A stretch of DNA of 13,801 nucleotides from a virus (IMGVR_UViG_2534681759_000013); one strand, 5' to 3'. Counted from the stretch's first letter, positions 771 through 13,801 are shown. A program made the numbers and translations. The notes: generated by a model not told the origin, from the sequence alone.

Positions 771-949
771 ACCCGCTCCAGAATGTTTTAAACATGCATC
801 TTGCGAACAACTTTCAGAAGAGGTCAAAAAATGCGCTATATGTTGAGCATAAAACAAGCAAAATTAACATGCTAAAAATAAAAATACTTAAAATTCAATA
901 CAATGGAAAGATGATGATGACGAATGAAAATGCAAAAACTAGCCTTTTT

Positions 950-969
950 CCGCGCCGCTCCCGCCCCGT
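950..969 (-). other. cosN-like cohesive-end site, left module (diverged copy)
   Basis: The minus strand reads CCACGGGGCGGGAGCGGCGCGGAAAAAGGC, resembling the lambda cosN region (..TTACGGGGCGGCGACCTCGCGGGTTTTCGC..) as recalled from memory. It sits between the capsid-gene terminator and the Nu1-like gene, and the same block recurs at 4583..4608. Confidence 0.4.
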
Positions 970-996
970 GGCAGGTCACTACACCGGGAGGACCCG

Positions 997-1020
997 CAAA
1001 AAAAGGCGGCTATCGCCGCC
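997..1020 (-). terminator. rho-independent terminator after the left capsid gene
   Basis: On the minus strand, GGCGGC-GATA-GCCGCC forms a perfect 6-bp GC stem followed by a T7 run, beginning 8 nt after the capsid stop codon (1030..1028). Confidence 0.55.
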
Positions 1021-1027
1021 CTTGTTG

Positions 1028-2647
1028 TCATGCTCCACTCGATTTCAGTAATCCGCGATAGTCGAGGGCCGCGACACCTGCATCTATGCGCACCTTCCAG
1101 GCGACGCCATCAACAGTAAATCCCTCCTGCTCCTCAAGATATGGCGTATCAATACCATCAAGATAAGCGACCTCTATCGTGTCCATCCCCTTCGCCGCTG
1201 CCACATACCACTCCTTGTTATTGGCTTTATCAAGACGCGGCTCGACGATAACCTCTGCCATATCTTTCACCACGTTAATGATGCCGGGGTTCTGATTGAT
1301 AGTGCCTCCACCATCAATCGGAAAGAGTGATGACGATGACAGAATGGCGCGATGTGCGGCAGACTCCAGCGCAGCAGGGACCAGAACAAAAGCGGGGGTA
1401 ATATTCAGGGAGTCGCCGTTGCCATCCTCCTGTAATCGCATCAGCTTACGGGCTTCGTTAAGCCCCTCCATGTCCATATCCTTCGCAATAAGATTTTTAT
1501 GATCGGCATGGAATAACGCTTTACCATCCGTAAATTTGCCGTTGCTGGTTAACAGAAGATAAACCAGATTACCTACTGTTCTGGCGGCCGCACGCCCCAT
1601 CGCCATGGGGATTGTAGTTAACTGGGTCAGGTCATCGTTGATAATGGCCTGACGGGTAACAGAAAAAATATTACCGTATGTGGCCAGCGCAATAGGTACA
1701 CCTTTATCGCTGGTGGTGATGTATTTATATTCCGCACCTTCCGGTACTTTATCCAGCTTTGAAAAACCATTCAGACCAACGCGCTTTGCTTCATGAAAGT
1801 TTGAAAGCGATCCGGTACACGTCCATTTCTGGAACGTTTCGCCGCTGTCCTGCCAGCCTTTCAGCACTGATTTTTCAGCACCACCAGCCAGAATATGAGA
1901 AAAATCGCTGCTGCTGTGTGTGAAAGCTGCATTAACGACCTGCGAGCGATTTAAAAAATTGCCAACACTGATACCACGATCAGTTAGTGATGCCTGGGCC
2001 ATTTCAAAAAGGCTCATCATCGCGTAAGGATTTCCCCGCTCTGGGCGTTCATACCCGAGACGAGAATAAAGCCCCTGACGAATTGCATCGCCTGTTATGT
2101 TCCCGTTACCGGCATAAATATGAGTCGGGATATTTTTATTGGATGGCGTGGACTCGCGCCCCAGCTCGTTCAACAACTTTTCACGGGCCATCTCCGGTGT
2201 ACATGATGCATCCTCCAGGCACGCCATTTTGATCCCGTCGTAACGACTGCCGAACAGGCTAAACACTTCACTTATTCCGTTGATGCGCTTCTGTTCATTA
2301 CCAGCAATATTTGCCGCTCCCTGTGGCGGTGTAATCATTCCTTTAATGGTTTCCGGCATATGTAAAAAATCTCCTGTGCGTTTCGATTCAATTCGCGCCA
2401 TTACTCTGACGGATGGCAACAATTCATCAGCAAAACCGTGCTTAAGGCATTCTTTCCCATCCATCCAGGTTTCATCCTCCAGCATGGCGGTAATTTCCTG
2501 TGCTGATTTGCCCGTTTTTCTGGCATAAGCAGGGATTAACACGGTTTCCACCTTATCCAGCAAATCAGCATAATCACGCATATCGCCAGCATTTCCGCCA
2601 GAGATCCCCCACGGTTTATGGATCATCATGCAATACATTGAAATCAT
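1028..2647 (-). CDS. major capsid protein (Mu gpT-like) paralog, 5'-truncated: retains only the distal part of the ClpP-like protease region
   Basis: 539-aa ORF, about 80% identical by eye to residues ~103-638 of the 638-aa protein at 4671..6587. It begins MISMYCMMIHKPWGISGG, so it keeps the ClpP-type His motif (MIHKP) but lacks the upstream ~100 codons that carry the Ser motif GLAASMA. Sequence upstream of 2647 is unrelated to the paralog. An internal ATG at 2638 has a better-spaced AGGA. Confidence 0.6.
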   Translation of the reverse strand: MISMYCMMIHKPWGISGGNAGDMRDYADLLDKVETVLIPAYARKTGKSAQEITAMLEDETWMDGKECLKHGFADELLPSVRVMARIESKRTGDFLHMPETIKGMITPPQGAANIAGNEQKRINGISEVFSLFGSRYDGIKMACLEDASCTPEMAREKLLNELGRESTPSNKNIPTHIYAGNGNITGDAIRQGLYSRLGYERPERGNPYAMMSLFEMAQASLTDRGISVGNFLNRSQVVNAAFTHSSSDFSHILAGGAEKSVLKGWQDSGETFQKWTCTGSLSNFHEAKRVGLNGFSKLDKVPEGAEYKYITTSDKGVPIALATYGNIFSVTRQAIINDDLTQLTTIPMAMGRAAARTVGNLVYLLLTSNGKFTDGKALFHADHKNLIAKDMDMEGLNEARKLMRLQEDGNGDSLNITPAFVLVPAALESAAHRAILSSSSLFPIDGGGTINQNPGIINVVKDMAEVIVEPRLDKANNKEWYVAAAKGMDTIEVAYLDGIDTPYLEEQEGFTVDGVAWKVRIDAGVAALDYRGLLKSSGA

Positions 2648-2696
2648 CCTACTGATAAATAAGATTAAAAATCACAATACAGATACGTTTGAGCTT

Positions 2697-2721
2697 CATT
2701 GCAATACGCATTGCAATACAC
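2697..2721. repeat. tandem ATTGCAAT palindromes (CATTGCAATACGCATTGCAATACAC); second copy at 12779..12801
   Basis: Two copies of the self-complementary octamer ATTGCAAT at 2698..2705 and 2710..2717, 12 bp apart. About 21 of 23 positions match the block immediately upstream of the integrase start codon. Confidence 0.5.
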
Positions 2722-2870
2722 GGTTGCTGGGTGATTTCAAAAGATGAATGCTGCGAAGGATGGAAATTTGGGAACTAGGTGGTGAATAGCACAACAAAAA
2801 ATCAGAATTCTACTAGCTTAAAATGATGCAAAAAGCATTCGTGGCATCGCAAGCGCTGTACAATTCGTTC

Positions 2871-2876
2871 TATAAT
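2871..2876 (+). promoter_or_regulatory. candidate -10 hexamer (TATAAT) for plus-strand transcription into cargo cassette 1
   Basis: Exact TATAAT in the 420-bp intergenic region, about 45 bp upstream of a strong-SD short ORF and about 195 bp upstream of the 3070 start. No convincing -35 identified. Confidence 0.25.
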
Positions 2877-3069
2877 GAAGAAAATTTCTAACAGACTTTA
2901 TCATTCAAAGGTGGAGGAGATGACAGCAATGCAACATGCATCACGCTCATACTTGAATTGTAAAGCTATCGTTAGAATCACAGCCTTTTTGTTCCGCTGA
3001 TCTAACGATAAAACTAGTGGTAAAAGGTATATTTTTTAATTTTTCAGACGCTGGCGCGGGGTAATTAAA

Positions 3070-3372
3070 ATGAAATTTGTAAATATACGGTCATCCGAGT
3101 TGCCTGAAATAGATACCTTTGTAAAAGAATGTATCAACCAAGGACAATGGACTCTTTTCAAGGCCGAGAAGGGTGCAGTTAATGATAATAAAGTTGCTTT
3201 TTTTCTAAAGGCTGGCAAAGATTTCTTTGCATTAAATAACAGAGGAAGTGTTATCTCTGTATTTCAATCATTAGATTATAATCTTGAAATGAATGAGGTA
3301 ATTCATTTTTCAGATATTCCTAAACCTGAATCGTTGAGCAATATTGCTAGCTTAGGATTTGCTAGAGTTTAA
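3070..3372 (+). CDS. hypothetical small protein (100 aa), first gene of AT-rich cargo cassette 1
   Basis: Track ORF with ATG at 3070 preceded by GGGG about 10 nt upstream. AT-rich codon usage (many K/N/I/F) distinct from the backbone. An 18-bp gap separates it from the next gene on the same strand. No recognisable motif. Confidence 0.55.
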   Translation: MKFVNIRSSELPEIDTFVKECINQGQWTLFKAEKGAVNDNKVAFFLKAGKDFFALNNRGSVISVFQSLDYNLEMNEVIHFSDIPKPESLSNIASLGFARV

Positions 3373-3390
3373 TATATAAGGATATGTACG

Positions 3391-4281
3391 ATGGGATTAA
3401 TATCTGGAAATACACATTGGGTATTATTTTTACCTTGTGAGCACCAACCAGAAGATCGCCATGTTCAAGATTTAGTTCATGGCGTCTTTTGCTTAGAATC
3501 CTCAGGTATACAGCCATCTAATATTAGCATATATATTGATGGCCAAAATAGAGCCAACTTTAATAAGTTAATTTCGATTGCAACCCAACATAATTATACT
3601 ATCAAGCCTACATCTGAATTTTTCACCGACTGCGATACAAATAGTTATGAAAATCTAGTTATGTTTGTGACCGGACACGGAAGTATGAATGGTTTGGACT
3701 CTGCGCCGATCATAACCCCATACCGTTTATTGGACAGGTTAAAAAACACTCCTGTTCTCAAGCAAGCAATCGTTTATCTTGGTCAATGTTTCGCTGGTGT
3801 TTTCAACTACTTACCTGCTGGGCAGCGTAAGAGAGGTGAAGATGCCGACCCCGATGTCATTCTTATCGGGGCTACGAGTCTTCATGAAAGTTTGAGTAAT
3901 CCAACAACGGAAAATATTAATGGTATAGATTTTCCTTGGGTTGCAAATCAATTTTTATATCATGTATTTAAGTGGATATCATCCCCGAATGATATCGATG
4001 GGGATGGAAAACATACAGTAATTGACTCTTATAAGTATGCTGGAATCTCATCAAACATGACCAATCGTAGAATGAAGATAGGTTCTTTTGTAGCTTCGGT
4101 AGACTTGCATGAGCAATGGAATACTGCAAAAAAAGATCATGAAGCTAACTTGGCTGATCCACAAAAACTACTCCGTTATAGAGCATTAGATCAGCAATAC
4201 TATGAAAAACTGAACATTAACTATATTCATCAAGAGTGCTGGATATTAAATTCTGTACCTGCACAATCTGTTGAATTCTAA
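3391..4281 (+). CDS. caspase-like (clan CD) cysteine peptidase-like protein with EF-hand-like Ca-binding loop
   Basis: 296 aa. A hydrophobic strand followed by His-Gly (LVMFVTGHGS, H96; codon 3676..3678) and a second hydrophobic strand followed by Cys (AIVYLGQCFAG, C133; codon 3787..3789) match the His/Cys dyad layout of caspase/metacaspase/legumain-type peptidases. DIDGDGKHTVID (residues 201-212, nt 3991..4026) fits the DxDxDGxhxxxD/E EF-hand loop pattern. AAGGA RBS 8-12 nt upstream of the ATG. Confidence 0.6.
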   Translation: MGLISGNTHWVLFLPCEHQPEDRHVQDLVHGVFCLESSGIQPSNISIYIDGQNRANFNKLISIATQHNYTIKPTSEFFTDCDTNSYENLVMFVTGHGSMNGLDSAPIITPYRLLDRLKNTPVLKQAIVYLGQCFAGVFNYLPAGQRKRGEDADPDVILIGATSLHESLSNPTTENINGIDFPWVANQFLYHVFKWISSPNDIDGDGKHTVIDSYKYAGISSNMTNRRMKIGSFVASVDLHEQWNTAKKDHEANLADPQKLLRYRALDQQYYEKLNINYIHQECWILNSVPAQSVEF

Positions 4282-4285
4282 TCCT

Positions 4286-4453
4286 TTACTTTTTTGAATA
4301 GATTGCTGCAAGTGCCGTTTTGAGGTCGTAATTTCGGCACTTGCAACTGCAACCAGAAATAGGGCGAACGTTTGACAAACGTTTAGCTATAGTCTGCCGA
4401 TGAAATCCAGTCACTTCCGCCAACTCACTTAAATTTAGAACTATCTTTTTCAT
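4286..4453 (-). CDS. short Nu1-like HTH DNA-binding protein (55 aa); apparently a truncated small-terminase gene
   Basis: Not in the ORF track (below its length cut-off); found by hand translation: MKKIVLNLSELAEVTGFHRQTIAKRLSNVRPISGCSCKCRNYDLKTALAAIYSKK. AAGGG SD 5-6 nt upstream of ATG 4453..4451, TAA at 4288..4286. It aligns across its whole length to the N-terminal HTH region of the 285..770 protein. It lies downstream of the cos-like site, and its stop is 4 bp from the convergent stop of the 3391..4281 gene. Confidence 0.5.
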   Translation of the reverse strand: MKKIVLNLSELAEVTGFHRQTIAKRLSNVRPISGCSCKCRNYDLKTALAAIYSKK

Positions 4454-4582
4454 CATAATTACCCTTCAGATGTCGAACAAATAACATACAATCCATCATC
4501 TTTTCCACTTTTATAAAGTTTTACCTAATAAAATTCAGTTAGTTAGCGAATGATGATGATGTCTATAAAATTCAAAAACTAG

Positions 4583-4608
4583 CCGTTTCCCGCGATGCCG
4601 CCGCCCCG
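4583..4608 (-). other. lambda-like cosN cohesive-end site of the satellite
   Basis: The minus strand reads CCTGCCACGGGGCGGCGGCATCGCGGGAAACGGCTAGTTTTTGAATTTTAT. Against lambda cos as recalled (CAGGTTACGGGGCGGCGACCTCGCGGGTTTTCGCTATTTATGAAAATTTT), the 11-mer ACGGGGCGGCG and the 7-mer TCGCGGG are identical and the flank is similar. It is followed about 140 bp later by the Nu1-like HTH gene on the same strand. Confidence 0.5.
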
Positions 4609-4634
4609 TGGCAGGCATCCCCGCCGGGAGTACC

Positions 4635-4662
4635 TTTTAAAAAAGGGCAGCATCTGCCGCCC
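4635..4662 (-). terminator. rho-independent terminator after the protease-capsid gene
   Basis: On the minus strand, GGGCGGC-AGAT-GCTGCCC forms a 7-bp stem (one G-U pair) followed by TTTTTT, 8 nt after the capsid stop (4673..4671). Homologous in position and form to 997..1020. Confidence 0.55.
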
Positions 4663-4670
4663 TCCTGTCG

Positions 4671-6587
4671 TCATGCCGCCCCGCTCGACTTCACCATGCC
4701 CCGATAATCCAGCGCCGCCACGCCAGCATCGATACGCACCTTCCATGCAATACCGTCCACAGTGAAGCCCTCCTGCTGTTCCAGATACGGCACGTCCATT
4801 CCATCCAGATATGCCACCTCGATAGTGTCGGTGCCTTGCGCTGCAGTGACGTACCACTCCTTGTTGTTGGCCTTGTCCAGTCGCGGCTCAACCACTACCT
4901 GCGCCATATCCTTCACGACGTTGATAATGCCTGGGTTCTGGTTCAGCATACCGTTCTGGTCTACCGGGAACAGCGAAGATGATGACAGCACAGCTCGATT
5001 GGCTGCGCCTTCCAGCGCGGCAGGTACAAGGATATAGGCTGGGATAACATTAATAGGATCGCCGTTCGCATCCTCCTGCAGACGCATAGCCTTACGGGCC
5101 TCATTGAGTCCGTCTGTATCCATCCCTTTAGCGATGAGGTTTTTATGGTCGGCGTGGAACAACGCTTTACCATCTGTGAATTTGCTGTTGGCGGTCAGTT
5201 GCAGGTAGACCAGATTGCCAACCGTTCGTGCGGCGGCACGCCCCATTGCCTGTGGAATGGTCGTGAGCTGGCTCAGGTCATCGTTGATAATGGCCTGGCG
5301 TGTAACAGAGAAGATGTTTCCATAGGTGGCCAGCGCGATCGGCACACCGCTGTCGCTGGTAGTGACATATTTGTATTCAGCACCTTCCGGGACTTTATCC
5401 AGTTCTGAAAAACCATTCAGACCGACACGTTTAGCCTCATGGAAATTCGACAGAGAACCGGTCTTTGTCCACTGCTGGAAAGTTTCCCCGCTGTTCTGCC
5501 AGCCAGTCAGCACCGACTTTTCAGCACCACCAGCCAGGATATGAGAGAAATCACTGGTGCTGTGCGTAAATGCCAGGTTCACGATCTGCGAGCGATTCCC
5601 GAAACCACTGACGCTGATACCACGATCCACCAGCGAAGCCTGCGCCATTTCAAACAGACTCATCATGGCGTAAGGGTTTCCCCTTTCGGCGCGTTCGTGA
5701 CCCAGACGGGCAAAAAGCCCCTGGCGGATAGCATCGCCGGTAATGTTGCCGTTACCTGCGTAAATGTGCGCGTTACTGGTTTTATCCGATGGGGTCGAGG
5801 TCTTACCCAGTGCCGTCAGCAGCATGTCTTTTGCTTTTTCAGGCGTGCAATCCACATCCTCCAGACACTGCATCTTGAGAGAATCATGCTTGCCGCCGAA
5901 CATGGCAAACAGATCCTTAATCTCGTTGATGCGGTTCTGTTCCGGTACAGCGCTACTGGTGGAACCTTTCGGGCTGGTGATCATCCCTTTAATTTCTTTT
6001 GGCATATGCTCAAAATCCTCAATTCGTTTTGACTCAATACAGGCCATTGCCCTGACGGCGGGTAACAATTCGTCAGCAAAACCCTGCGCTACACATTCGC
6101 GGCCATCCATCCATGTTTCATCCTCCAGCATTTCCGCCAGTGATTCGGCTGATTTACCCGTTTTGCGTGCATATGCCGGGATCAAGACACTTTCGACTTT
6201 ATCCAGAAGTTCGGCGTAGTCGCGCATGTCGTTGGCGTTCCCACCAGAGATTCCCCACGGTTTGTGAATCATCATGAGTGCGTTTTCGGGCATAACGATA
6301 CGGTCGCCAGCCATTGCAATAACTGACGCCATAGACGCGGCGAGACCGTCGATCTGCACTGTAATTTTTGCCGGGTGTTTATTCAGAAGGTTATAGATAG
6401 CGATGCCGTCAAAAACATCGCCACCGGGTGAATGAATGTGCAGGCTGATATGGGAGATATCGCCTAGGGCTTTCAGGTCTTCGGAGAACTGCTGCGCCGT
6501 AATACCCCAGCCGCCGATCTCTTCGTAGATGCTGATATTGGCGCTGGTGCCATCGCTGGCCGCTTTGATGGTGTACCAGCCTTTCAT
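4671..6587 (-). CDS. ClpP-like prohead protease fused to major capsid protein (Mu gpT-like)
   Basis: 638-aa ORF. The N-terminal ~180 aa carry ClpP/S49-type motifs (GLAASMASVIAMAGD with Ser85; MMIHKPWGISGG with His108). The C-terminal ~450 aa resemble Mu-like major head subunits as I recall them. The start ATG (6587..6585) overlaps the stop of the upstream small gene (ATGA). Confidence 0.85.
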   Translation of the reverse strand: MKGWYTIKAASDGTSANISIYEEIGGWGITAQQFSEDLKALGDISHISLHIHSPGGDVFDGIAIYNLLNKHPAKITVQIDGLAASMASVIAMAGDRIVMPENALMMIHKPWGISGGNANDMRDYAELLDKVESVLIPAYARKTGKSAESLAEMLEDETWMDGRECVAQGFADELLPAVRAMACIESKRIEDFEHMPKEIKGMITSPKGSTSSAVPEQNRINEIKDLFAMFGGKHDSLKMQCLEDVDCTPEKAKDMLLTALGKTSTPSDKTSNAHIYAGNGNITGDAIRQGLFARLGHERAERGNPYAMMSLFEMAQASLVDRGISVSGFGNRSQIVNLAFTHSTSDFSHILAGGAEKSVLTGWQNSGETFQQWTKTGSLSNFHEAKRVGLNGFSELDKVPEGAEYKYVTTSDSGVPIALATYGNIFSVTRQAIINDDLSQLTTIPQAMGRAAARTVGNLVYLQLTANSKFTDGKALFHADHKNLIAKGMDTDGLNEARKAMRLQEDANGDPINVIPAYILVPAALEGAANRAVLSSSSLFPVDQNGMLNQNPGIINVVKDMAQVVVEPRLDKANNKEWYVTAAQGTDTIEVAYLDGMDVPYLEQQEGFTVDGIAWKVRIDAGVAALDYRGMVKSSGAA

Positions 6588-6796
6588 TTTTCACCTTCCG
6601 TTACAGCGAAGCCATTTTCATCAAGCCATGCGTTGACTGCGTGCCGGACTACCTGTGCCACTCCGGGCAATGGCTGGACAGGAAGATTTTTCAGATGATC
6701 GTTGCGGTATTGCTTAAGGCGTACAACGGTTTGCGCGTCCAGATGTACGGAGCCGCCTTTAGTCTCGCCAGTGTTTAAATCGTTAATGTCACTCAT
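6584..6796 (-). CDS. hypothetical small protein (70 aa) translationally coupled to the protease-capsid gene
   Basis: The track ORF 6584..6844 starts at an alternative codon; the internal ATG at 6796 (MSDINDLNTGETKGG...) has AGAGGA 5 nt upstream. Its stop overlaps the capsid start. Confidence 0.5.
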   Translation of the reverse strand: MSDINDLNTGETKGGSVHLDAQTVVRLKQYRNDHLKNLPVQPLPGVAQVVRHAVNAWLDENGFAVTEGEK

Positions 6797-6941
6797 GATG
6801 TCCTCTACTGTATAAGTAAACAGGTTATGATGATTGATCACCAAAAGTGGTAAGTGAACAATTTTTTATCTGAAAAATAGATTTATGATGAAAAAAAATT
6901 TTTGTATGGTCTTAGATTGGAATAAACAGAAAGGTTAAAAA

Positions 6942-7655
6942 ATGGATCTCACTCGTAATGACGAACTCCTTTTGAATGATGCAGCTAGACGCTCATTTCG
7001 GGATATGGCAGACCAGGATTATCTCTCAGCTCGTCTGTGTTATAAGCACAAATTGAATTTTCAATTTTTATGGCTTTCGCAACAAGCCGTAGAGAAATAT
7101 ATTAAAGCGATTTTACTTTATAATAGAGTTCCAGTATTAAAATTAAATCACAATTTAAACAAAGGGCTGGCAAAGATTAAAGAAATCCCATATCTTGAAT
7201 TAGACCTAGATGTAAAAAGTGAGCGATTCATAGATTATCTCAATGAGCAGGGCCCAAATAGATACTTCCAAAACACTATGTATACCGAAGGCTTTGAAAT
7301 TATAACCTTGGATAGAACCATCTGGGAATTAAGAAGATACTGCAAGCCACTAAACTACTCAATTACTAACCCAAAAGGTGAAGTGATAGAAATGTTAGAA
7401 CATGAATTGAGTAGCATAAAAAATTCGAAGTCGAGGCCTTATCATACGTTCAAACTATTTGGAGGTTACTTAGAAAAAAGATTAAAAGATAATAAATTCA
7501 ATCAGGGCGACATACTTACATGGAAAAATTTATTTTTTGGAAGAAATAAAAAAAATGCAATTAGAATTGGAAGATCAATGCATGTAACTCATCCAACTCA
7601 TTATATGTACCCAAATGCAACGGAAATGCTCAGTCGTTTCTTTAAAATAAAATAA
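6942..7655 (+). CDS. hypothetical protein (237 aa), AT-rich cargo cassette 2; possible HEPN-like all-alpha N-terminus (weak)
   Basis: Track ORF with AAAGG RBS, strongly AT-rich, on the strand opposite the backbone and divergent from the capsid operon. The N-terminal segment (QQAVEKYIKAILLYNRVPVLKLNHNLNKG) has an R-x7-H arrangement loosely reminiscent of the HEPN Rx4-6H motif, but this is not convincing without a profile search. Confidence 0.55.
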   Translation: MDLTRNDELLLNDAARRSFRDMADQDYLSARLCYKHKLNFQFLWLSQQAVEKYIKAILLYNRVPVLKLNHNLNKGLAKIKEIPYLELDLDVKSERFIDYLNEQGPNRYFQNTMYTEGFEIITLDRTIWELRRYCKPLNYSITNPKGEVIEMLEHELSSIKNSKSRPYHTFKLFGGYLEKRLKDNKFNQGDILTWKNLFFGRNKKNAIRIGRSMHVTHPTHYMYPNATEMLSRFFKIK

Positions 7656-7755
7656 TTACATTCCAATTTTATTTACCGCTGTTAAATAAGTAAGGTATAT
7701 CTTTATTTATCGACATTGATAATCATGAAAGAGTATATCTTTTTTGCCGCACCTA

Positions 7756-7962
7756 GCGCATTTCTCACCGCACTTTCATCCCGCGCACTTAGGTGCGCAA
7801 TCCAACATGCACCGTACAGCCATTAAAACCAGTAATGGGGCGGGTTTGCAGGTGATTAATGCCAAACCGCGCACTTTCTTCGTATATACATGGAAAAAGT
7901 GCGGCAAGTGTATGTTTTATGAGCATTTCGCGCATCACGCGCATTTCTTGCCGCACTTTTCA
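7756..7962. repeat. iteron-like repeat cluster, putative satellite origin of replication
   Basis: GCGCATTTCTCACCGCACTTTCA (7756..7778) and GCGCATTTCTTGCCGCACTTTTCA (7939..7962) are near-identical direct repeats. Related copies include the palindrome GCGCACTTAGGTGCGC (7783..7798), CGCGCACTTTCTTCG (~7868..7882) and an inverted copy AAAAAGTGCGGCAAGTG (7895..7911). The cluster lies immediately 3' of the replication ATPase gene, where PICI-type origins usually sit. Confidence 0.4.
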
Positions 7963-7964
7963 GG

Positions 7965-9374
7965 TTAAATTATCGTGATATCTCCTGAATCATCGATAAA
8001 GATAATATTCTCCCTAACGAGTTTATCAAGCCAGCGTTTAAAACCTTTGCGGCCGTTCTCTCCAAACAGAGTGGTAATATCATCACGTATAACAGAGACA
8101 TTACACGGTTCACCTTTGGCTTTTCGGCTCCGGATTGACTGCCAGAGTGCAGCGTGGTTCCCAGTCAGGTGCTTGATATCAGCAAGTTCCGGATCAGGTT
8201 CTCGTGCCTCTCGTGGCAGGTCCTGCACCACCAGCGACGAAATAAGCTCACCATCACGATCTGTGAACAATTCGATCGGACGCAGATCGAATGCGGCCTG
8301 TTTCGGCTCCTCCGCATCTTTCATCTTCGTACAGGTCAGGATTATCGCCCCACCATCCCCCTCGCGCCGGACATTGAACTCTGCATCGAGCGCAGCCCTG
8401 AAAGCACTGGAACCACGTGCGCCTTTGGTATCGTCTTTTCCTGAATGATGCACCACCAGCAACGTGGCGCCAGTCTCACGCTTGATGACGTCGCAGCCTT
8501 CAATAAACGCCCCCATGTCACGAGCATCGTTTTCATCGTTACCACCAAAGCACCGCGCTAGAGTATCTATGACAATCAGGCGAACCGGCTGCCCCGTTTT
8601 GGACTTAACGTCACGCGCAGCTTTGATCATCTCCTGCATTTCCTCACGGCGAACCGGGAAAACCGGACGGTTTACCAGATACAGATTATTTAGTTTCACA
8701 CCATGTTTTTTCTCCCACGCCTTTATTCGCCGCGGAACGCCAATACCACCTTCACCTACTACGTACATCACAGCGCCGGCTGATACCGACTTCCCCGCCC
8801 ACTTCATCCCGGCTGCAACGTGACAAGCCCAGGACACCACCAGAAAACTTTTATACGAACCGCTCGGGCCGTAGATACTGCTCAGGCTGTTAGCGGGAAG
8901 ATAACTTTTTAACGTGTAATCCTGCTCCTGATCGTACCCATCAGAGCCCACGCTTAAAGGAAGGCTGTGCCGCAGTGACTCCTCTCGCACAGAGACTTCA
9001 ACCTGTTCACGCAGACGAGAAAGATATTCCCTCCAGTCCTCAGGCTCATGGTCGGGGATTCCTTTATACAATTTGGCATCCTGCACGCCAGCCAGCGCCA
9101 GCTTTTCAGCAATGTTATTAATCTGGATAGGCTTTATATTCCCTGCCAGGTAAATCCGCACGGCACGACGGCCATCATCCACAATGCGCAGGTTATCCAG
9201 CTCTGCCAGTTGTTTTGGCCCAAGGTAAACAGGAGGAGTGGTATCTTCGGCAATCTGTTTACCAAGCCCCTCTTCCCAACCCTTCGCATGGGCGTATGCT
9301 TCTGACCCGGCAAAAATAACTGCCTCCGTGAATTTTTCTTTTGGCAGGTGTTTCAGATTCGGTGCGTTTTTCAT
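7965..9374 (-). CDS. replication initiator / helicase-type RecA-fold P-loop ATPase (RepA/DnaB-like) with an unknown N-terminal domain
   Basis: 469-aa ORF. Walker A (IYGPSGSYKSF), Walker B-like (RLIVIDTLARCFGG) and a downstream LLVVHHSGKDDTKGARGSSAF segment are typical of AAA_25/RepA-like replicative ATPases found in PICI and P4-like primase-helicase genes. Its start overlaps the stop of the upstream gene. Confidence 0.85.
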   Translation of the reverse strand: MKNAPNLKHLPKEKFTEAVIFAGSEAYAHAKGWEEGLGKQIAEDTTPPVYLGPKQLAELDNLRIVDDGRRAVRIYLAGNIKPIQINNIAEKLALAGVQDAKLYKGIPDHEPEDWREYLSRLREQVEVSVREESLRHSLPLSVGSDGYDQEQDYTLKSYLPANSLSSIYGPSGSYKSFLVVSWACHVAAGMKWAGKSVSAGAVMYVVGEGGIGVPRRIKAWEKKHGVKLNNLYLVNRPVFPVRREEMQEMIKAARDVKSKTGQPVRLIVIDTLARCFGGNDENDARDMGAFIEGCDVIKRETGATLLVVHHSGKDDTKGARGSSAFRAALDAEFNVRREGDGGAIILTCTKMKDAEEPKQAAFDLRPIELFTDRDGELISSLVVQDLPREAREPDPELADIKHLTGNHAALWQSIRSRKAKGEPCNVSVIRDDITTLFGENGRKGFKRWLDKLVRENIIFIDDSGDITII

Positions 9375-9694
9375 TTCAGCCCCTTATCCCATCCGTCAGA
9401 TCCAACACTCAGCGGCAGAGAAGAGCGCAGAGCAGCGATTTTTTTACGCACGTTTTCTTTTACGGTCTCCTGCCACTCCCTGCTTTCCTCAGGGAGATAA
9501 ATAAATTCTTTTCGGAACCGGTACTCAGAAAAAATACACTCATGTGAATACCCATCCCGGACATACGTAATACGGCTATCCGTTATGCATGTGACAGTAA
9601 TTTTTTCTCCGCGAGAATCTTTCCAGCGACTGTTAAGCTCGATTTTTGGTTGAGCGATGCCCTCAGGCTGAACCTGATTGAATTTTTTAATCAT
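9371..9694 (-). CDS. hypothetical protein (107 aa); C-terminus shares the SLPLSVGSDG linker motif with the replication ATPase
   Basis: Track ORF with AAGGA SD 8 nt upstream of ATG 9694. The stop is coupled to the ATPase start. The C-terminal ~30 aa are similar to residues ~110-145 of the 7965..9374 protein. Confidence 0.55.
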   Translation of the reverse strand: MIKKFNQVQPEGIAQPKIELNSRWKDSRGEKITVTCITDSRITYVRDGYSHECIFSEYRFRKEFIYLPEESREWQETVKENVRKKIAALRSSLPLSVGSDGWDKGLK

Positions 9695-9698
9695 GAAT

Positions 9699-9878
9699 TT
9701 ATTCCTTGTCGGTAGCCGTTAAACCGTATGCTTCAGCAGCCTGACGAACTGCCTGGATAAAACCTTCCGGTGTGGCCACGATTTCGTCCGGACGAAGGCG
9801 GCGCTCTGTAACCTGACCGTTTTTAACCGTCACCAGTACGCGGATCTCGTAATCAGCAGGTAAGGCGGAGTTATCCAT
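9699..9878 (-). CDS. hypothetical small protein (59 aa)
   Basis: Internal ATG ([15 protein letters not shown]...) of track ORF 9699..10004. It overlaps the stop of the upstream gene (caTGGAtaa arrangement) and ends 4 nt before the next start, so it is tightly packed in the operon. Confidence 0.4.
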
Positions 9879-10158
9879 GGCGCACCTCCATTGGCACAGC
9901 TTCATTGCTGTAAGGATCGCTACCCAAGATGCTCCATAGGGTGCGATGTTCAGGATCCATAAACGACACTGAGAGCGGGCTTTCTGTTCGGATTTTGGCG
10001 GCAAAGGTCAAGTCCCAGCCGCAGAACTTTGCACGGGCAGTATCTTCAGTGTCTGCAATGGTGCGCAGAACTATCGGGAGACAAGAGTGACCTCGCGGCG
10101 TGCCAAGGAATAGCCATGTAAATTTTGGGCGAGTTTGGGTATGCTGTTGATCAGCCAT
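9871..10158 (-). CDS. hypothetical protein (95 aa), first gene of the replication operon
   Basis: Internal ATG at 10158 ([13 protein letters not shown]...) of track ORF 9871..10215, with GAGGT SD about 7 nt upstream. Divergent from the RHH gene across an operator-like intergenic region. Confidence 0.45.
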
Positions 10159-10251
10159 AACTGTTACCTCAACTAACGGTTTGTGGTTAGACGTCCCGTG
10201 AGTGGTTCCAAGCACTTCCGGGACGTTGCTTTTTTCACGTCAAGCGTGATA

Positions 10252-10289
10252 ACGTACGTAATAGCAACATCCTATGAGGTTACGTACGT
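10252..10289. promoter_or_regulatory. paired ACGTACGT palindromes, candidate operator in the divergent promoter region
   Basis: The palindromic octamer ACGTACGT occurs at 10252..10259 and 10282..10289 (30 bp centre to centre), between the divergently oriented 10158 start (minus) and 10292 start (plus). The second copy sits just upstream of the RHH gene ATG. Confidence 0.45.
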
Positions 10290-10291
10290 AC

Positions 10292-10483
10292 ATGTCAACA
10301 ATAAAACGAGATAAAACACCCAAAGGAGAGGGCTTGTCTCCGACATTCCAAATCCGAATAAGTCCTGAATTGCGCCAGCAGATGAATGAAGCTGCTGAGC
10401 GTGAGGGAGTAAGTCTTGGTAATTGGCTTAAAGGTCTGGCTAGAAATGAACTTATTAAGCAAGGAATTGAACCTAAAGGTTAG
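10292..10483 (+). CDS. ribbon-helix-helix (Arc/CopG-like) DNA-binding protein, candidate repressor
   Basis: Second ATG of track ORF 10274..10483 (the first ATG lies inside the operator palindrome). 63 aa with a beta-strand then two helices (TFQIRISPEL / RQQMNEAAEREG / VSLGNWLKGLARNEL), typical of RHH regulators. GAGGT about 11 nt upstream. Confidence 0.6.
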   Translation: MSTIKRDKTPKGEGLSPTFQIRISPELRQQMNEAAEREGVSLGNWLKGLARNELIKQGIEPKG

Positions 10484-10536
10484 TTTTCACAAGCACTCTT
10501 TGATTTTTTCAGTAAAAATTAAATTAAGGAAATTCT

Positions 10537-11247
10537 ATGGATGATTTATATACACCATCTGAATATTTTATGTTCGTAGAGAAATTTGATCATTACTTCC
10601 CACGAAAAAGCCCTTTTAACTCATTATTATTCGAGTTCAATTATAGATTAGAAGATATAGTTGTTTTTCATCGCTTTGTTATCAACACCTATTCAAAAAA
10701 TAAAAAAGCAATTGATGTACAATATAATAAATTTAATTTTCTTGATGATAAACAAAAAAATTCCCTTTCTGATGACGAGTATGAAGCGTATCAACTCAGG
10801 TTTGCAAGGCATATGGAATACATTAACCATCAAACTGATTTGAATGAAAAAGCGTCTTACATTGCTAACGATAGTGTCGTTATAAACTTATGGGCCATGA
10901 ATGAACAATATATGACTAGAGGATTGGCCAACCTAATATCTCAAAAAGAAAATAAAAATTTAAATGAAGTTAAAACGCCTTACAAATGGGATACAATCAA
11001 AAGTAAATTCCTGTCATATGGAATCAACTTTGAGACATTGCCATCTTATGATGACATTAATGAATGTAGAGTACTGAATAATAAAATAAAACATCTGAAC
11101 ATAGTAGATTCTGGTTTAGAAGTTTTCCCTCCCTTCAAAGGTAAGCTTAACGAATCACTTACTGGCATGGCCTTTCCTCTTCAAAAATATATCATAGGCT
11201 CTCATCACTTTATAGGAATGCTATTAGAAGAGTGCTCATTAAAATAA
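10537..11247 (+). CDS. hypothetical protein (236 aa), AT-rich cargo cassette 3, downstream of the RHH gene
   Basis: Track ORF with AAGGAA RBS 6-12 nt upstream, strongly AT-rich, 53 bp after the RHH stop on the same strand. No recognisable catalytic motif. Confidence 0.6.
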   Translation: MDDLYTPSEYFMFVEKFDHYFPRKSPFNSLLFEFNYRLEDIVVFHRFVINTYSKNKKAIDVQYNKFNFLDDKQKNSLSDDEYEAYQLRFARHMEYINHQTDLNEKASYIANDSVVINLWAMNEQYMTRGLANLISQKENKNLNEVKTPYKWDTIKSKFLSYGINFETLPSYDDINECRVLNNKIKHLNIVDSGLEVFPPFKGKLNESLTGMAFPLQKYIIGSHHFIGMLLEECSLK

Positions 11248-11251
11248 ACGC

Positions 11252-11288
11252 ATGGCAACGTATAATTTATCGCTTAATACGTTGCCAT
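11252..11288. terminator. hairpin between convergent genes (candidate bidirectional terminator)
   Basis: Perfect 11-bp inverted repeat ATGGCAACGTA / TACGTTGCCAT (11252..11262 and 11278..11288) with a 15-nt loop. It is 5 nt after the 10537..11247 stop and 6 nt after the alpA stop, with U-rich tracts on both transcribed strands. Confidence 0.5.
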
Positions 11289-11293
11289 ATCTC

Positions 11294-11530
11294 TCATTTA
11301 TTTTTATCGAACCAATCTCCTTTAATCCAAGCTTGCATCTCTGAGAGCCGGTAAGCAACTGCTGACGGCCCAATTTTGATTCGCTTAGGAAATTTTCCTT
11401 CCTGTTCCATGCGCCAGCGCGTTGAGTTAGACAACGTAGTCATAGCCCGGCATTCAGGTTCGCGAATCATTCTGTCAAGGTCAGGCATGTACTGGAGATC
11501 TTCTTTTTTCACAACGGATAACATAGCCAT
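11294..11530 (-). CDS. alpA: AlpA-family phage regulatory protein (excisionase-like HTH)
   Basis: The track ORF starts at GTG 11539; the first ATG is at 11530 (MAMLSVVKKE...) with AAGGAG 8 nt upstream. The segment AMTTLSNSTRWRMEQEGKFPKRIKIGPSAVAYRLSEMQAWI matches the AlpA/Xis-like HTH pattern. It lies immediately downstream of the integrase gene. Confidence 0.7.
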   Translation of the reverse strand: MAMLSVVKKEDLQYMPDLDRMIREPECRAMTTLSNSTRWRMEQEGKFPKRIKIGPSAVAYRLSEMQAWIKGDWFDKNK

Positions 11531-11531
11531 A

Positions 11532-12767
11532 TCAGGCACTCCTTTTCTTAATTACTTTTACTGTATTTTCTTCACCCACCAGCCCATCAAGGTAGTCAAC
11601 CCATCGGTCCAGTGCTTCTTGCTTTTGAGGGATATACTTGCTGCGGTTATAGACTCCGGCCACGCCCTTTATGGTATGCCCCAGCAGCTGCTCTACGACC
11701 ATAAAATCAACGCCCATATCGTTAAGGCTTGTCGAGAACGTTCGTCTCAAATCATGTAATGACCAGCGTTTTTCATGTTTCAGAGAGATAAAGTTTGTGC
11801 ATCCCATCGTACTGACGGTTGAATCAGATTTCAGTTCGCCAAATATGTAGCCTCTCCTTTTAGTCTCTTCGTGCAGGTTTACGATCCACTGGCGCATTTT
11901 TTGAGGAACGGGGCGAATAATTTCTTCGCCGTTTTTACTGTGCTCTTTAGGTACTGTCCAAATCCACTTATCGAAATCCCACTCATCCCATGTAGATAAA
12001 CGCGCCTCACTCAGCCTGCAGCCAAACACGAGACACAAAATCGCCATCCTTTTTTTGTAATTCATTACACGGGTTTTGCCTTTACCATGAAAGTACACTC
12101 CCCACAGATCGGCGACGTAGCTTTCCTCAAGTAGCCGCTCTCTCTTGTTCTGATACTTACCGATATCACCAGGGCTCAAATCATCAAGCACATTGCACCG
12201 CACATACTGGCGCACCCGGCAGTATTTGAAGATCTGCTTTAACTCAATCAGCATTGCAGCAGACTGAACCGGCGCGATTTTCTTTATGCGGTCGAAGCAC
12301 TTGATCCAGTCTGACAGACCGCATTTCTCGACAGGAAACCCGCCGATGTAGGGAAAAATGTATCTCTCATAACGGCGATAGAGCCGTAAAGTCTCTTTGC
12401 GCTTTTCCCTGGCATAGTTATCAAACCAGTAATCGATAGCGTTCTTCACAGTTACTGGAGTGAACAGGTTCTCTTTGGTGAGTTTGTTCTCTATTCGTGG
12501 GTCGAGTCCCTGAGATAGCCATGCCCGGCACTCGTCCCTTTTCTCTCTGGCCTGTTTAAGGGTCATATCTGGATACTTGCCTAACGTCATCCAGACGGGG
12601 GCGCTTTGTCGGCCGGAATGTCTGAAGAAATACACAAAGCTCACAGTGCCACTAACGCTCACTCTGACAGACAGTCCACGACCATCTGCCACCATCTTTT
12701 GACGCGGCTGGGGTTTACCATGTAAGGCCTTTAACGCCTTGTCGCTTAACTTGTTCTCGCCCGCCAT
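11532..12767 (-). CDS. int: tyrosine recombinase / phage integrase, P4-type
   Basis: 411-aa ORF with an N-terminal arm-binding-type region (GRGLSVRVSVSGTVSFVYFFR) and C-terminal catalytic signatures (HDLRRTFSTSL ... LLGHT ... YNRSKY). GAGG SD 5-8 nt upstream of the ATG. Confidence 0.9.
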   Translation of the reverse strand: MAGENKLSDKALKALHGKPQPRQKMVADGRGLSVRVSVSGTVSFVYFFRHSGRQSAPVWMTLGKYPDMTLKQAREKRDECRAWLSQGLDPRIENKLTKENLFTPVTVKNAIDYWFDNYAREKRKETLRLYRRYERYIFPYIGGFPVEKCGLSDWIKCFDRIKKIAPVQSAAMLIELKQIFKYCRVRQYVRCNVLDDLSPGDIGKYQNKRERLLEESYVADLWGVYFHGKGKTRVMNYKKRMAILCLVFGCRLSEARLSTWDEWDFDKWIWTVPKEHSKNGEEIIRPVPQKMRQWIVNLHEETKRRGYIFGELKSDSTVSTMGCTNFISLKHEKRWSLHDLRRTFSTSLNDMGVDFMVVEQLLGHTIKGVAGVYNRSKYIPQKQEALDRWVDYLDGLVGEENTVKVIKKRSA

Positions 12768-12778
12768 AAAACCTCATT

Positions 12779-12801
12779 CTGCAATACACATTGCAATACA
12801 C
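12779..12801. repeat. second copy of the ATTGCAAT tandem-palindrome block (CTGCAATACACATTGCAATACAC), 12-34 bp upstream of the integrase ATG
   Basis: Near-identical to 2699..2721. It contains the palindromic octamer ATTGCAAT at 12790..12797 and a degenerate copy 12 bp upstream. Confidence 0.5.
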
Positions 12802-12944
12802 ACTTAACTGCAACGCCGAAAAACAGTAGAAAAGCAATGCAAACAACACCTCTTCTTTCGTAAGCGCATCATTTAAACCGTCTTTCGCCTCCCTTTCCTG
12901 TTTCCGATACTAATGTCCATTTTCGCAGTAAAAGGACATTTAAG

Positions 12945-13595
12945 ATGAATGCACGAAAGGCGGTACTGGCAGATAACCCGGAATTGATCCTGCGTGTGCT
13001 ACAGCTGAGATTTGACGAGTCACTGTCGTACCCGCGCATTTCTGCGCAGACCGGTGTCAGCAAAACCGCCATTTTTTCTCTGGTGAGGCGATTTCACCAG
13101 ATATTCGCTGACTGGCCTCTTTCCGGTGAATATTCCTGCATGCAACTGGCCCGGGCTCTTTTCCCTGGGCGATATCCTTCAGCCCCGACAGTGACTCAGC
13201 CTGTGAAAACAGAGAAAATCCGCCGGAACCGATTTTCACCGGAGTTTAAATGGAGGCTTGTTCAGCAAACTCTTTTACCCGGTGCCTGTGTCGCACAAAT
13301 AGCTCGCGAGAACGGAATCAACGATAACCTGCTCTTTAACTGGCGGCATCTCTGGCGTAACGGCGGCCTGCAGCCGCCCGGCGAACATGAAACATCGCTA
13401 CTTCCCGTGACGTTAACGCCGGAGCCGGATAATAAAATCCCGGCACCAGTGCAGATACCTGAACAGATAAATACACTGCCAGACAGTCTGTGCTGCGAGC
13501 TGGTTCTGCCGGCCGGAACTCTCAGGCTGAAAGGTGAACTGACACCGGCGTTATTACAGACACTTATCCGCGAAATGAAAGGGAGCAGCCACTGA
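12945..13595 (+). CDS. tnpA: IS66-family accessory protein TnpA (orf1), with an N-terminal extension or alternative start
   Basis: The central segment RRNRFSPEFKWRLVQQTLLPGACVAQIARENGINDNLLFNWRHLWRNG matches the conserved IS66 Orf1 HTH core as I remember it. The 216-aa ORF is longer than I would expect for this family, so the true start may be internal. Confidence 0.7.
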   Translation: MNARKAVLADNPELILRVLQLRFDESLSYPRISAQTGVSKTAIFSLVRRFHQIFADWPLSGEYSCMQLARALFPGRYPSAPTVTQPVKTEKIRRNRFSPEFKWRLVQQTLLPGACVAQIARENGINDNLLFNWRHLWRNGGLQPPGEHETSLLPVTLTPEPDNKIPAPVQIPEQINTLPDSLCCELVLPAGTLRLKGELTPALLQTLIREMKGSSH

Positions 13596-13801
13596 TGATA
13601 TCTCTCCCTGCCGGTTCGCGTATCTGGCTGGTTGCCGGTATCACCGATATGCGAAATGGCTTTAACGGCCTGGCCTCAAAAGTTCAGAACGTCCTGAAGG
13701 ATGACCCGTTCTCCGGGCATCTGTTCATCTTCCGCGGACGCCGGGGTGACCAGATAAAAGTGCTGTGGGCTGACAGTGACGGACTGTGCCTCTTCACCAA
13801 A
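13595..13801 (+). CDS. tnpB: IS66-family TnpB (orf2), 3'-partial
   Basis: Hand translation from ATG 13595 gives MISLPAGSRIWLVAGITDMRNGFNGLASKVQNVLKDDPFSGHLFIFRGRRGDQIKVLWADSDGLCLFTK, the conserved IS66 Orf2 N-terminus as I recall it. It is absent from the track because it runs off the window without a stop. Confidence 0.8.
   Translation, partial: MISLPAGSRIWLVAGITDMRNGFNGLASKVQNVLKDDPFSGHLFIFRGRRGDQIKVLWADSDGLCLFTK

Follow-up and report, generated by a model that had tools for sequence, protein, structure and literature searches.

The DNA immediately downstream of the rep gene is very probably, judging from its sequence and that of its relatives, the vegetative replication origin of a PICI-type phage satellite of about 10 kb in E. 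coli. The predicted origin occupies positions 7744-7958 (minus strand) of the window, by which is meant the whole 13,801-nt stretch of DNA that was analysed. It comprises ten iterons, a central putative melting site and one conserved non-iteron element, and its repeats recur in the same position and layout in relatives. A putative origin at this place was the central claim of the original prediction, and comparison supports that reading through position, layout, covariation and the match to published PICI and SaPI origins. The origin itself is an expected PICI feature and will not surprise a specialist. What is added here is a family-wide architecture, a candidate initiator in which an SF4 helicase is fused to a winged helix, and a proposed one-residue rule of specificity.

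The iteron array and its layout

The convergent HEPN and rep genes are separated by an intergenic gap of 309 bp, which holds all of the repeat strings that had been quoted from this DNA: GCGCATTTCTCACCGCACTTT at 7756-7776, GCGCATTTCTTGCCGCACTTT at 7939-7959, the palindrome GCGCACTTAGGTGCGC at 7783-7798 and AAAAAGTGCGGCAAGTG at 7893-7909. These repeats are real; each string lies where it was reported, and the 21-mer GCGCATTTCTYRCCGCACTTT matches the window (with up to three mismatches) at 7756 and 7939 alone and has no match in 200 shuffles. The near-identical repeats of 23-24 bp that had been described are present, but the true unit is an iteron of ~11 bp and the longer repeats are therefore iteron dimers, each consisting of two adjacent units. 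Ten copies of this unit, AARTGCGSnnn, occur within 7744-7958, the unit (AARTGCGS plus three nucleotides) being read on the rep-sense (minus) strand. Similarly, the cluster does lie at 7756-7962, where it had been placed, but the array begins one unit to the left of 7756, at 7744. SCGCAYTT has 11 matches in the window, seven of them within 7756-7958, where the expectation for the whole window is 3.08. Of the 68 TGCGS cores that the window has on its two strands, 11 fall in the 265 nt of 7700-7964, where 1.1 are expected (Poisson P = 3e-8). The SCGCAYTT hits outside the array are single, and no second iteron cluster was found in the 13.8-kb window. Because the rep stop codon occupies 7965-7967, the first iteron (7948-7958) starts 6 nt past it, and the array is directly 3' of the replication ATPase gene, as predicted.

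The iterons are arranged in two sets, three proximal and five distal copies, together with a central pair, and the intervening DNA is 40-60% AT overall. The proximal array (7927-7958, minus strand) consists of three co-oriented iterons, AAGTGCGGCAA at 7948-7958, AAATGCGCGTG at 7936-7946 and TGATGCGCGAA at 7927-7937, with start-to-start spacings of 12 and 9 nt; relatives carry 2-4 direct copies after the stop. The array has just one clearly inverted iteron, a plus-strand copy of AAGTGCGGCAA at 7897-7907. It makes up the left half of the palindromic pair at the centre, and relatives have an inverted copy at ~+40 to +66 from the stop. The right half is the direct iteron AAGTGCGCGGT (7866-7876, minus strand), so that an opposed pair of the form CAYTT-N20-AARTG spans 7866-7907. 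Between the two halves lies a 20-bp spacer, TCTTCGTATATACATGGAAA (7877-7896), with a TATATA core at 7883-7888, and both the length of this spacer and its core are kept in relatives. The spacer is the proposed site at which the duplex would first melt and the helicase would be loaded. Further from rep are the conserved non-iteron element, which reads AAACCCGCCCCATTACTGGTTTT in the rep sense (7825-7847, minus strand) and of which AAACCC..ATTACTGGGTTT is kept in enteric relatives, and then the distal array (7744-7801, minus strand). The latter contains a palindromic TGCGCA copy that is legible on both strands (7791-7801), followed by AAGTGCGCGGG at 7780-7790, AAGTGCGGTGA at 7765-7775, AAATGCGCTAG at 7753-7763 and AGGTGCGGCAA at 7744-7754, all on the minus strand; relatives have 4-5 direct copies at ~+140 to +190.

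The AT-rich centre that had been noticed is a local feature. In 20-nt windows the spacer at 7877-7896 reaches 60-70% AT, and 7905-7925 is moderately AT-rich, but 7790-7870 is 40-60% AT. The very AT-rich DNA (65-90%) is the stretch 7640-7740, which is outside the array; the flank at 7656-7743, between the HEPN stop codon and the distal array, is AT-rich to the same degree. This flank is possibly an extra unwinding region; it is not a conserved part of the origin, as in relatives the ribosome-binding site and ATG of the next gene directly follow the distal array. A reading of the flank as DnaA boxes or an IHF site was likewise set aside. In those relatives the slot after the origin is taken by SSB, ProQ or PerC genes. 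The iteron core AAGTGCGGC, found at 7897-7905 and in other iterons, is nearly identical to the Haemophilus DNA-uptake signal AAGTGCGGT, a similarity judged to be coincidental; a literature search with the iteron strings returned just Haemophilus uptake-signal papers (AAGTGCGGT) and primer lists.

Conservation of the array and covariation with Rep

Rep homologues grade from 100% identity to 53%. Loci were drawn from representative Enterobacterales genomes (80 loci), from IMG/VR (80) and, in a few cases, by exact protein look-up; 159 were usable, and 140 of them are distinct. Among these 140 relatives there are 128 in which the 230 nt after the rep stop contain 4-12 copies (median 6) of a single RTGNGS motif, and the remaining 12 have no clear RTGNGS iterons. 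The same motif occurs elsewhere in the same loci at 0.37 per 230 nt, an enrichment of ~17-fold in the array, where the iteron class was picked from the same region whose enrichment was then measured. The array-bearing relatives come from two independent collections and are Enterobacterales-wide. Conservation of the repeats in related elements with the same rep was the check that the original prediction had proposed, and the origin reading is not refuted by it.

The layout is conserved along with the repeats. Two to four direct copies at the stop are followed by an inverted copy, the TATATA spacer, a direct copy, ~60 bp of further DNA and 4-5 direct copies, and this order is unchanged from Escherichia to Xenorhabdus and Gilliamella. 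Of the 58 loci in which the CAYTT-N-AARTG pair is found, 53 have a spacer of exactly 20 nt, including Gilliamella at 53% Rep identity, and the core is always (C/T)ATATA(C/T). The sequence of the iterons is more variable: AAGTGCGGCA is used in the window, Citrobacter, Kluyvera, Kosakonia and Rosenbergiella, AAGTGGGGA or AAGTGGGGG in Pantoea, Serratia, Pectobacterium, Morganella and Yersinia, and AAAGTGAGGAA in Xenorhabdus. Near-identical E. coli hits (H7-H9) were considered as informative recombinants and rejected as deletion or IS remnants. One relative exists as a circular 'plasmid' record of 16,971 bp, pKp_Goe_795-4 of Klebsiella pneumoniae (CP018459.1, 1-16971; locus L088), in which AAGTGCGGCA iterons lie in a 215-bp gap after a rep of the same family. 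This record is a circular int/alpA/rep/capsid/terminase satellite with the replicon described here and is consistent with episomal replication.

The conserved element that is not an iteron has a distribution of its own. The motif (C)CATTACTGG (window 7825-7847) lies inside the origin of enteric members, always at +100 to +130, and may serve host-factor binding or priming. In 18 of 140 loci AYDACTGG lies at +100 to +130, compared with 0.024 per 230 nt as background. It recurs in the EcCICFT073 origin (L169 ~7197-7204), whose iterons are unrelated; ATTACTGG is common to the window and EcCICFT073 origins. Xenorhabdus members have a different inverted repeat at this position. An AAACCC..GGGTTT hairpin has stems of at least 6 in 46% of loci versus 16% of shuffles, which is weak support.

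The rep gene (7965-9374, minus strand) encodes 469 aa with a Pfam AAA_25 match (3.7e-41). The protein is predicted to be a RecA-fold helicase of the SF4 type, similar to RSF1010 RepA and T7 gp4, that is fused to a winged-helix domain; it comprises an N-domain (residues 1-~135), a RecA-fold SF4 core (~140-385, Walker A at G169-S176) and the winged helix (396-469). Walker A, Walker B and an HHSGK motif are invariant across the Rep homologues. The only solved sequence relative is RSF1010 RepA (PDB 1g8y, E = 7e-4). A full-length AF2 model (pLDDT 75.9) retrieves Twinkle, T7 gp4, KaiC and Rad51 with Foldseek, generic RecA-fold hits alone, and the winged helix emerged with a separate domain model. 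Modelled alone by AF2, residues 396-469 (7968-8189, minus strand) give a pLDDT of 90.4 and an H1-b-H2-H3-b-b topology, and Foldseek matches them to the LexA DNA-binding domain (TM 0.68-0.70), DtxR, Zur and ORC winged helices. This domain is the proposed iteron reader on the strength of AF2, Foldseek and covariation. Its recognition helix H3 (residues 439-454; 8013-8060, minus strand) is strongly basic (R442, K443, K446, R447, K451, R454) and includes the candidate specificity residue G444 (codon 8043-8045, minus strand).

The N-terminal 135 aa have no Pfam hit and no recognisable primase domain. Over the first ~128 residues of both proteins, Rep shares 50% identity with the EcCICFT073 replicase (E = 3e-34; window 8970-9374, L169 5242-5625), and the N-domain appears to be a shuffled module. 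Relatives differ in this part: L031 and L045 have N-terminal Zn_Ribbon_Prim and Toprim_3 domains followed by AAA_25, a Y. pestis relative (L027) has its primase as a separate ORF, and P0113, P0118 and L013 carry an unrelated N-domain.

Rep and the array are also linked by the covariation of residue 444 with the variable base of the iteron. In the first data set no Rep column carried more mutual information about iteron class than residue 444, and in the combined set the correspondence has no exception in 128 of 128 loci: G, S or A is found with C (23/23), H with G (35/35), K with G (34/34) and N with A (36/36). It is the sole column of 332 with 100% predictive accuracy, the next best reaching 0.83. 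Lys or His with G and Asn with A are usual recognition preferences. On the helicase-core tree both characters change 17 times (17 parsimony steps), i.e. there were at least 17 switches. Forward prediction held for L084 (E. coli P0097, N444, predicted A, iterons AAAGTGAGG) and for L087 (Salmonella P0118, S444, with a different N-domain; predicted C, iterons AAATGCGCGG) and held in part for L085 (Salmonella P0064, N444), which has mixed A/G iterons. Some Reps with identical cores and only 7-12 differing residues, all in 420-468, have different iterons. L156 (H444) and L159 (N444) differ at 0 of 246 core residues and at seven residues in all, every one within 420-456, and each of their ~10 iterons reads GTGGG in the one and GTGAG in the other. 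The N-domain differs by just 0-2 residues in such near-identical pairs and is therefore not the specificity determinant. Because the C-terminal coding DNA adjoins the origin, recombinational co-transfer could explain part of the covariation. Columns nearer to the origin than 444 predict worse, however, which argues against simple hitch-hiking and for a functional link. It is thus proposed, from sequence covariation and the modelled fold, that residue 444 in the recognition helix of the predicted winged helix reads the variable iteron base.

Proposed origin function and competing explanations

In the mechanism envisaged for this origin, the winged helices of Rep would bind the ~11-bp iterons after excision of the satellite, and residue 444 would read the base that varies. 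The proximal and distal arrays, each co-oriented and with a spacing of about one helical turn, would concentrate Rep on one face of the DNA, and the single inverted/direct pair, 20 bp apart around TATATA, would set Rep head-to-head. The duplex would then open at TATATA and hexamers would be loaded there, the adjacent gene thus supplying a self-loading initiator helicase. Priming and elongation would fall to host or helper enzymes, since Rep is without the Zn-ribbon/Toprim primase of many relatives. Rep binding, melting at TATATA, self-loading, polarity and helper-phage dependence are all steps that we infer. A search of the open-access literature, in which coverage was incomplete, found no description of this replicon family or experiment on it, and nothing on DUF4222 or AAA_25 together with satellites.

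Alternatively, the repeats could be true Rep-binding sites that serve control alone, in autoregulation, handcuffing, incompatibility or a roadblock in the rep operon, with initiation taking place elsewhere. Covariation shows protein-DNA pairing and not initiation, the most AT-rich DNA sits outside the array, and plasmid iteron arrays also act in handcuffing. Control alone is nonetheless unlikely as an explanation. The window has no other iteron cluster, and in its geometry the fixed inverted pair around TATATA corresponds to a loading site rather than to an operator. The array lies at the 3' end of the operon rather than at a promoter, and promoter and terminator scans found nothing in it. Furthermore, the analogous EcCICFT073 region is needed for plasmid maintenance (PMC6092414). 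It is very unlikely that the iterons are bound instead by a host factor or a different protein of the satellite (the DUF4222 product or AlpA, for example) while the winged helix has another role, given that one Rep column predicts the base of the iteron without error. A 4-nt overlap couples the translation of the DUF4222 gene and rep, and the DUF4222 proteins of near-identical Rep pairs differ too, by 4-10 residues; covariation between DUF4222 and the iterons involved too few loci for a result (a recognisable DUF4222 gene is upstream in n = 2 representative-genome loci). However, the same origin plan is found in relatives without DUF4222 upstream, including those with ~680-aa gp4-like Reps and the Y. 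pestis relative with the split primase, and DUF4222 is also upstream of SF3-type replicases with unrelated iterons; on both grounds DUF4222 is an unlikely determinant. The DUF4222 gene is found upstream of the replicases of the outer PICI described below, EcCICFT073, L084, L085 and L087, whatever their helicase type, and its product is possibly a replication accessory rather than the iteron reader.

It is hardly credible that the region is not a protein-binding array at all but encodes the 74-aa ORF or a small RNA, serves as a packaging (cos/pac) site or is of low complexity by chance. An open frame does run across the array (7744-7968), but it begins with TTG, has no Pfam hit and is left without annotation by PGAP in the near-identical RefSeq genome examined. 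A frame of at least 60 aa is open on this strand in just 25 of 75 relatives, a third, and the ORF is spurious, as had been suspected. The best Rfam match to the array region has E = 0.06, and the sub-threshold matches are eukaryotic miRNAs, which speaks against a small RNA; the shuffles, in which the 21-mer was never matched, speak against chance. PICIs do carry cos sites (PMC6092414), but cos sites do not covary with a replicase.

With 7744-7958 taken as the origin, a broader proposition arises, and it stands about evenly between acceptance and doubt: that Enterobacterales satellites share an uncharacterised class of initiator, in which an SF4 helicase would load itself via a fused winged helix and one recognition-helix residue would largely set specificity (small residues for C, His or Lys for G, Asn for A), having been re-set at least 17 times with all ~10 iterons. 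If this is true, co-resident satellites, such as the nested pair in the window, get mutually orthogonal replicons, and origin specificity becomes predictable and re-programmable from sequence. Single-residue changes that track the concerted change of every iteron provide a natural series, usable for the study of initiator/origin specificity co-evolution and of the avoidance of replicon cross-talk among satellites sharing a cell, and for the design of orthogonal Rep/ori pairs in PICI-based delivery vectors. For annotation, the gain is that the predicted origin of a satellite family, one widespread among Enterobacterales, is fixed and that a spurious ORF is dropped.

Nested satellites and known replicons

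Six complete E. coli chromosomes match the window at 99.9% identity, and any match to it is found in only 10 of 5426 genomes. The origin belongs to an island of ~10.2 kb (~2630-12860) that is bounded by a split ClpP/capsid gene, with a gene set of int, alpA, DUF4222, rep, ori, HEPN and ClpP/capsid gene. On the minus strand are int (11532-12767), alpA (Phage_AlpA, 11294-11539), an Icd-like gene, the DUF4222 gene (9371-9694, Pfam 2e-15), the stop of which overlaps the rep start by 4 nt, and rep. The HEPN gene (6942-7655) is on the plus strand, and a complete ClpP-protease/capsid fusion gene lies at 4671-6587. With int, alpA and a replicase in one direction, a length within ~10-20 kb and a site-specific insertion, the island is a Gram-negative PICI.

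The insertion (window 1028-2647 and ~2630-12860; L001 14330-14659) is in the ClpP/capsid gene of a second PICI, which is itself located at tRNA-Ile (ileX)-nfeF. The truncated ClpP/capsid copy of this outer PICI (1028-2647) begins at CLP_protease profile position 109, and the intact copy of the island is 80% identical to it. PICIs embedded in their helpers at C:CLP_protease:110 have been reported in 24 E. coli cases (Mageeney et al. 2023, PMC10111431), and the island matches this configuration; that work concerns integration and does not describe the replicase type of Rep or its iterons. The outer PICI encodes a P4-type DNA primase followed by ~10 copies of GGTGAACAG in both orientations (L001 15400-15645). 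GGTGAACAG is the P4 type-I iteron (TGTTCACC), and the two nested satellites therefore have unrelated replicons. An 80-bp segment is found twice in intergenic regions of the outer PICI with 95% identity (window 924-1003; L001 15178-15257). To the right of int (12860-13801) the window departs from NZ_CP024240 and contains an IS3-type transposase OrfA (HTH_Tnp_1, 12945-13595), the IS having replaced or split the attR side in the window strain. Cargo of low GC content (26-37%) occupies 6942-7655 (HEPN, directly after the origin), 3070-3372, 3391-4281 and 10537-11247, and neither the HEPN protein nor any other cargo ORF matched a PADLOC defence model.

PICI and SaPI origins sit immediately 3' of rep (PMC6092414, PMC9371898), and the EcCICFT073 pri-ori is the only experimentally tested Gram-negative example (Fillol-Salom et al. 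2018, PMC6092414). EcCICFT073 is an element of the same type as the island (int, alpA, Icd-like gene, DUF4222, replicase and capsid gene in one direction), and its origin, too, directly follows the replicase gene on the 3' side and has its iterons grouped into two sets. Its replicase, however, is a 584-aa protein of SF3 type (D5_N + DUF5906 + Pox_D5), whereas Rep combines AAA_25 with the predicted winged helix, and its iterons, CTGTCTACC/GGTAGA in a 289-bp gap after the replicase, contrast with the AARTGCGS iterons of the window. As positive controls, the EcCICFT073 replicase and the P4-type primase of the outer PICI each directly precede their own, different iterons. With a predicted SF4 motor and iterons of its own, the window replicon therefore shares the PICI/SaPI design, but not the motor or the iterons.

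The Rep of SaPIs is a hexameric initiator helicase without a separate loader, and its C-terminal winged-helix domain reads iterons just after rep (PMC9371898). The window has a counterpart to this reader in the predicted fold and the 128/128 covariation, and in both systems the iterons beside the AT-rich core are opposed (CAYTT-N20-AARTG in the window). SaPI motors are of SF3 or SF6 type (3'-5'); the Rep core, in contrast, is an AAA_25 RecA fold rather than an SF3/SF6 AAA+ motor, SF4-like and by analogy probably 5'-3'. SaPI iterons are 5-6 bp long and those of the window ~11 bp. In SaPI origins a broad AT-rich centre is flanked on each side by at least two opposed iterons (PMC9371898), while the window origin has a single opposed pair, held at a fixed distance of 20 bp, and its two outer arrays point in the same direction.

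The closest solved motors to Rep are the SF4 enzymes RSF1010/IncQ RepA and T7 gp4/Twinkle. RSF1010 RepA has a homologous core, but it is without a DNA-recognition domain and relies on the iteron binder RepC; Rep, with an N-domain of ~135 aa and a winged helix of 74 aa in addition, is not a stand-alone helicase of the IncQ RepA type. T7 gp4 likewise is without an origin-binding domain, whereas Rep has the predicted winged helix fused to its motor. Nor is the window Rep a gp4-like primase-helicase, although a Zn-ribbon/Toprim N-terminus is present in many of its relatives. The P4 alpha protein joins a primase and an SF3 helicase to a C-terminal origin-binding domain that acts on octamer iterons (TGTTCACC) in two regions, ori and crr. 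Alpha is thus a satellite replicase with a C-terminal reader, as proposed here, but is without sequence relation to the Rep core or the iterons. Within the satellite design of a helicase, a winged helix and iterons after rep, SF4 would be a third type of motor.
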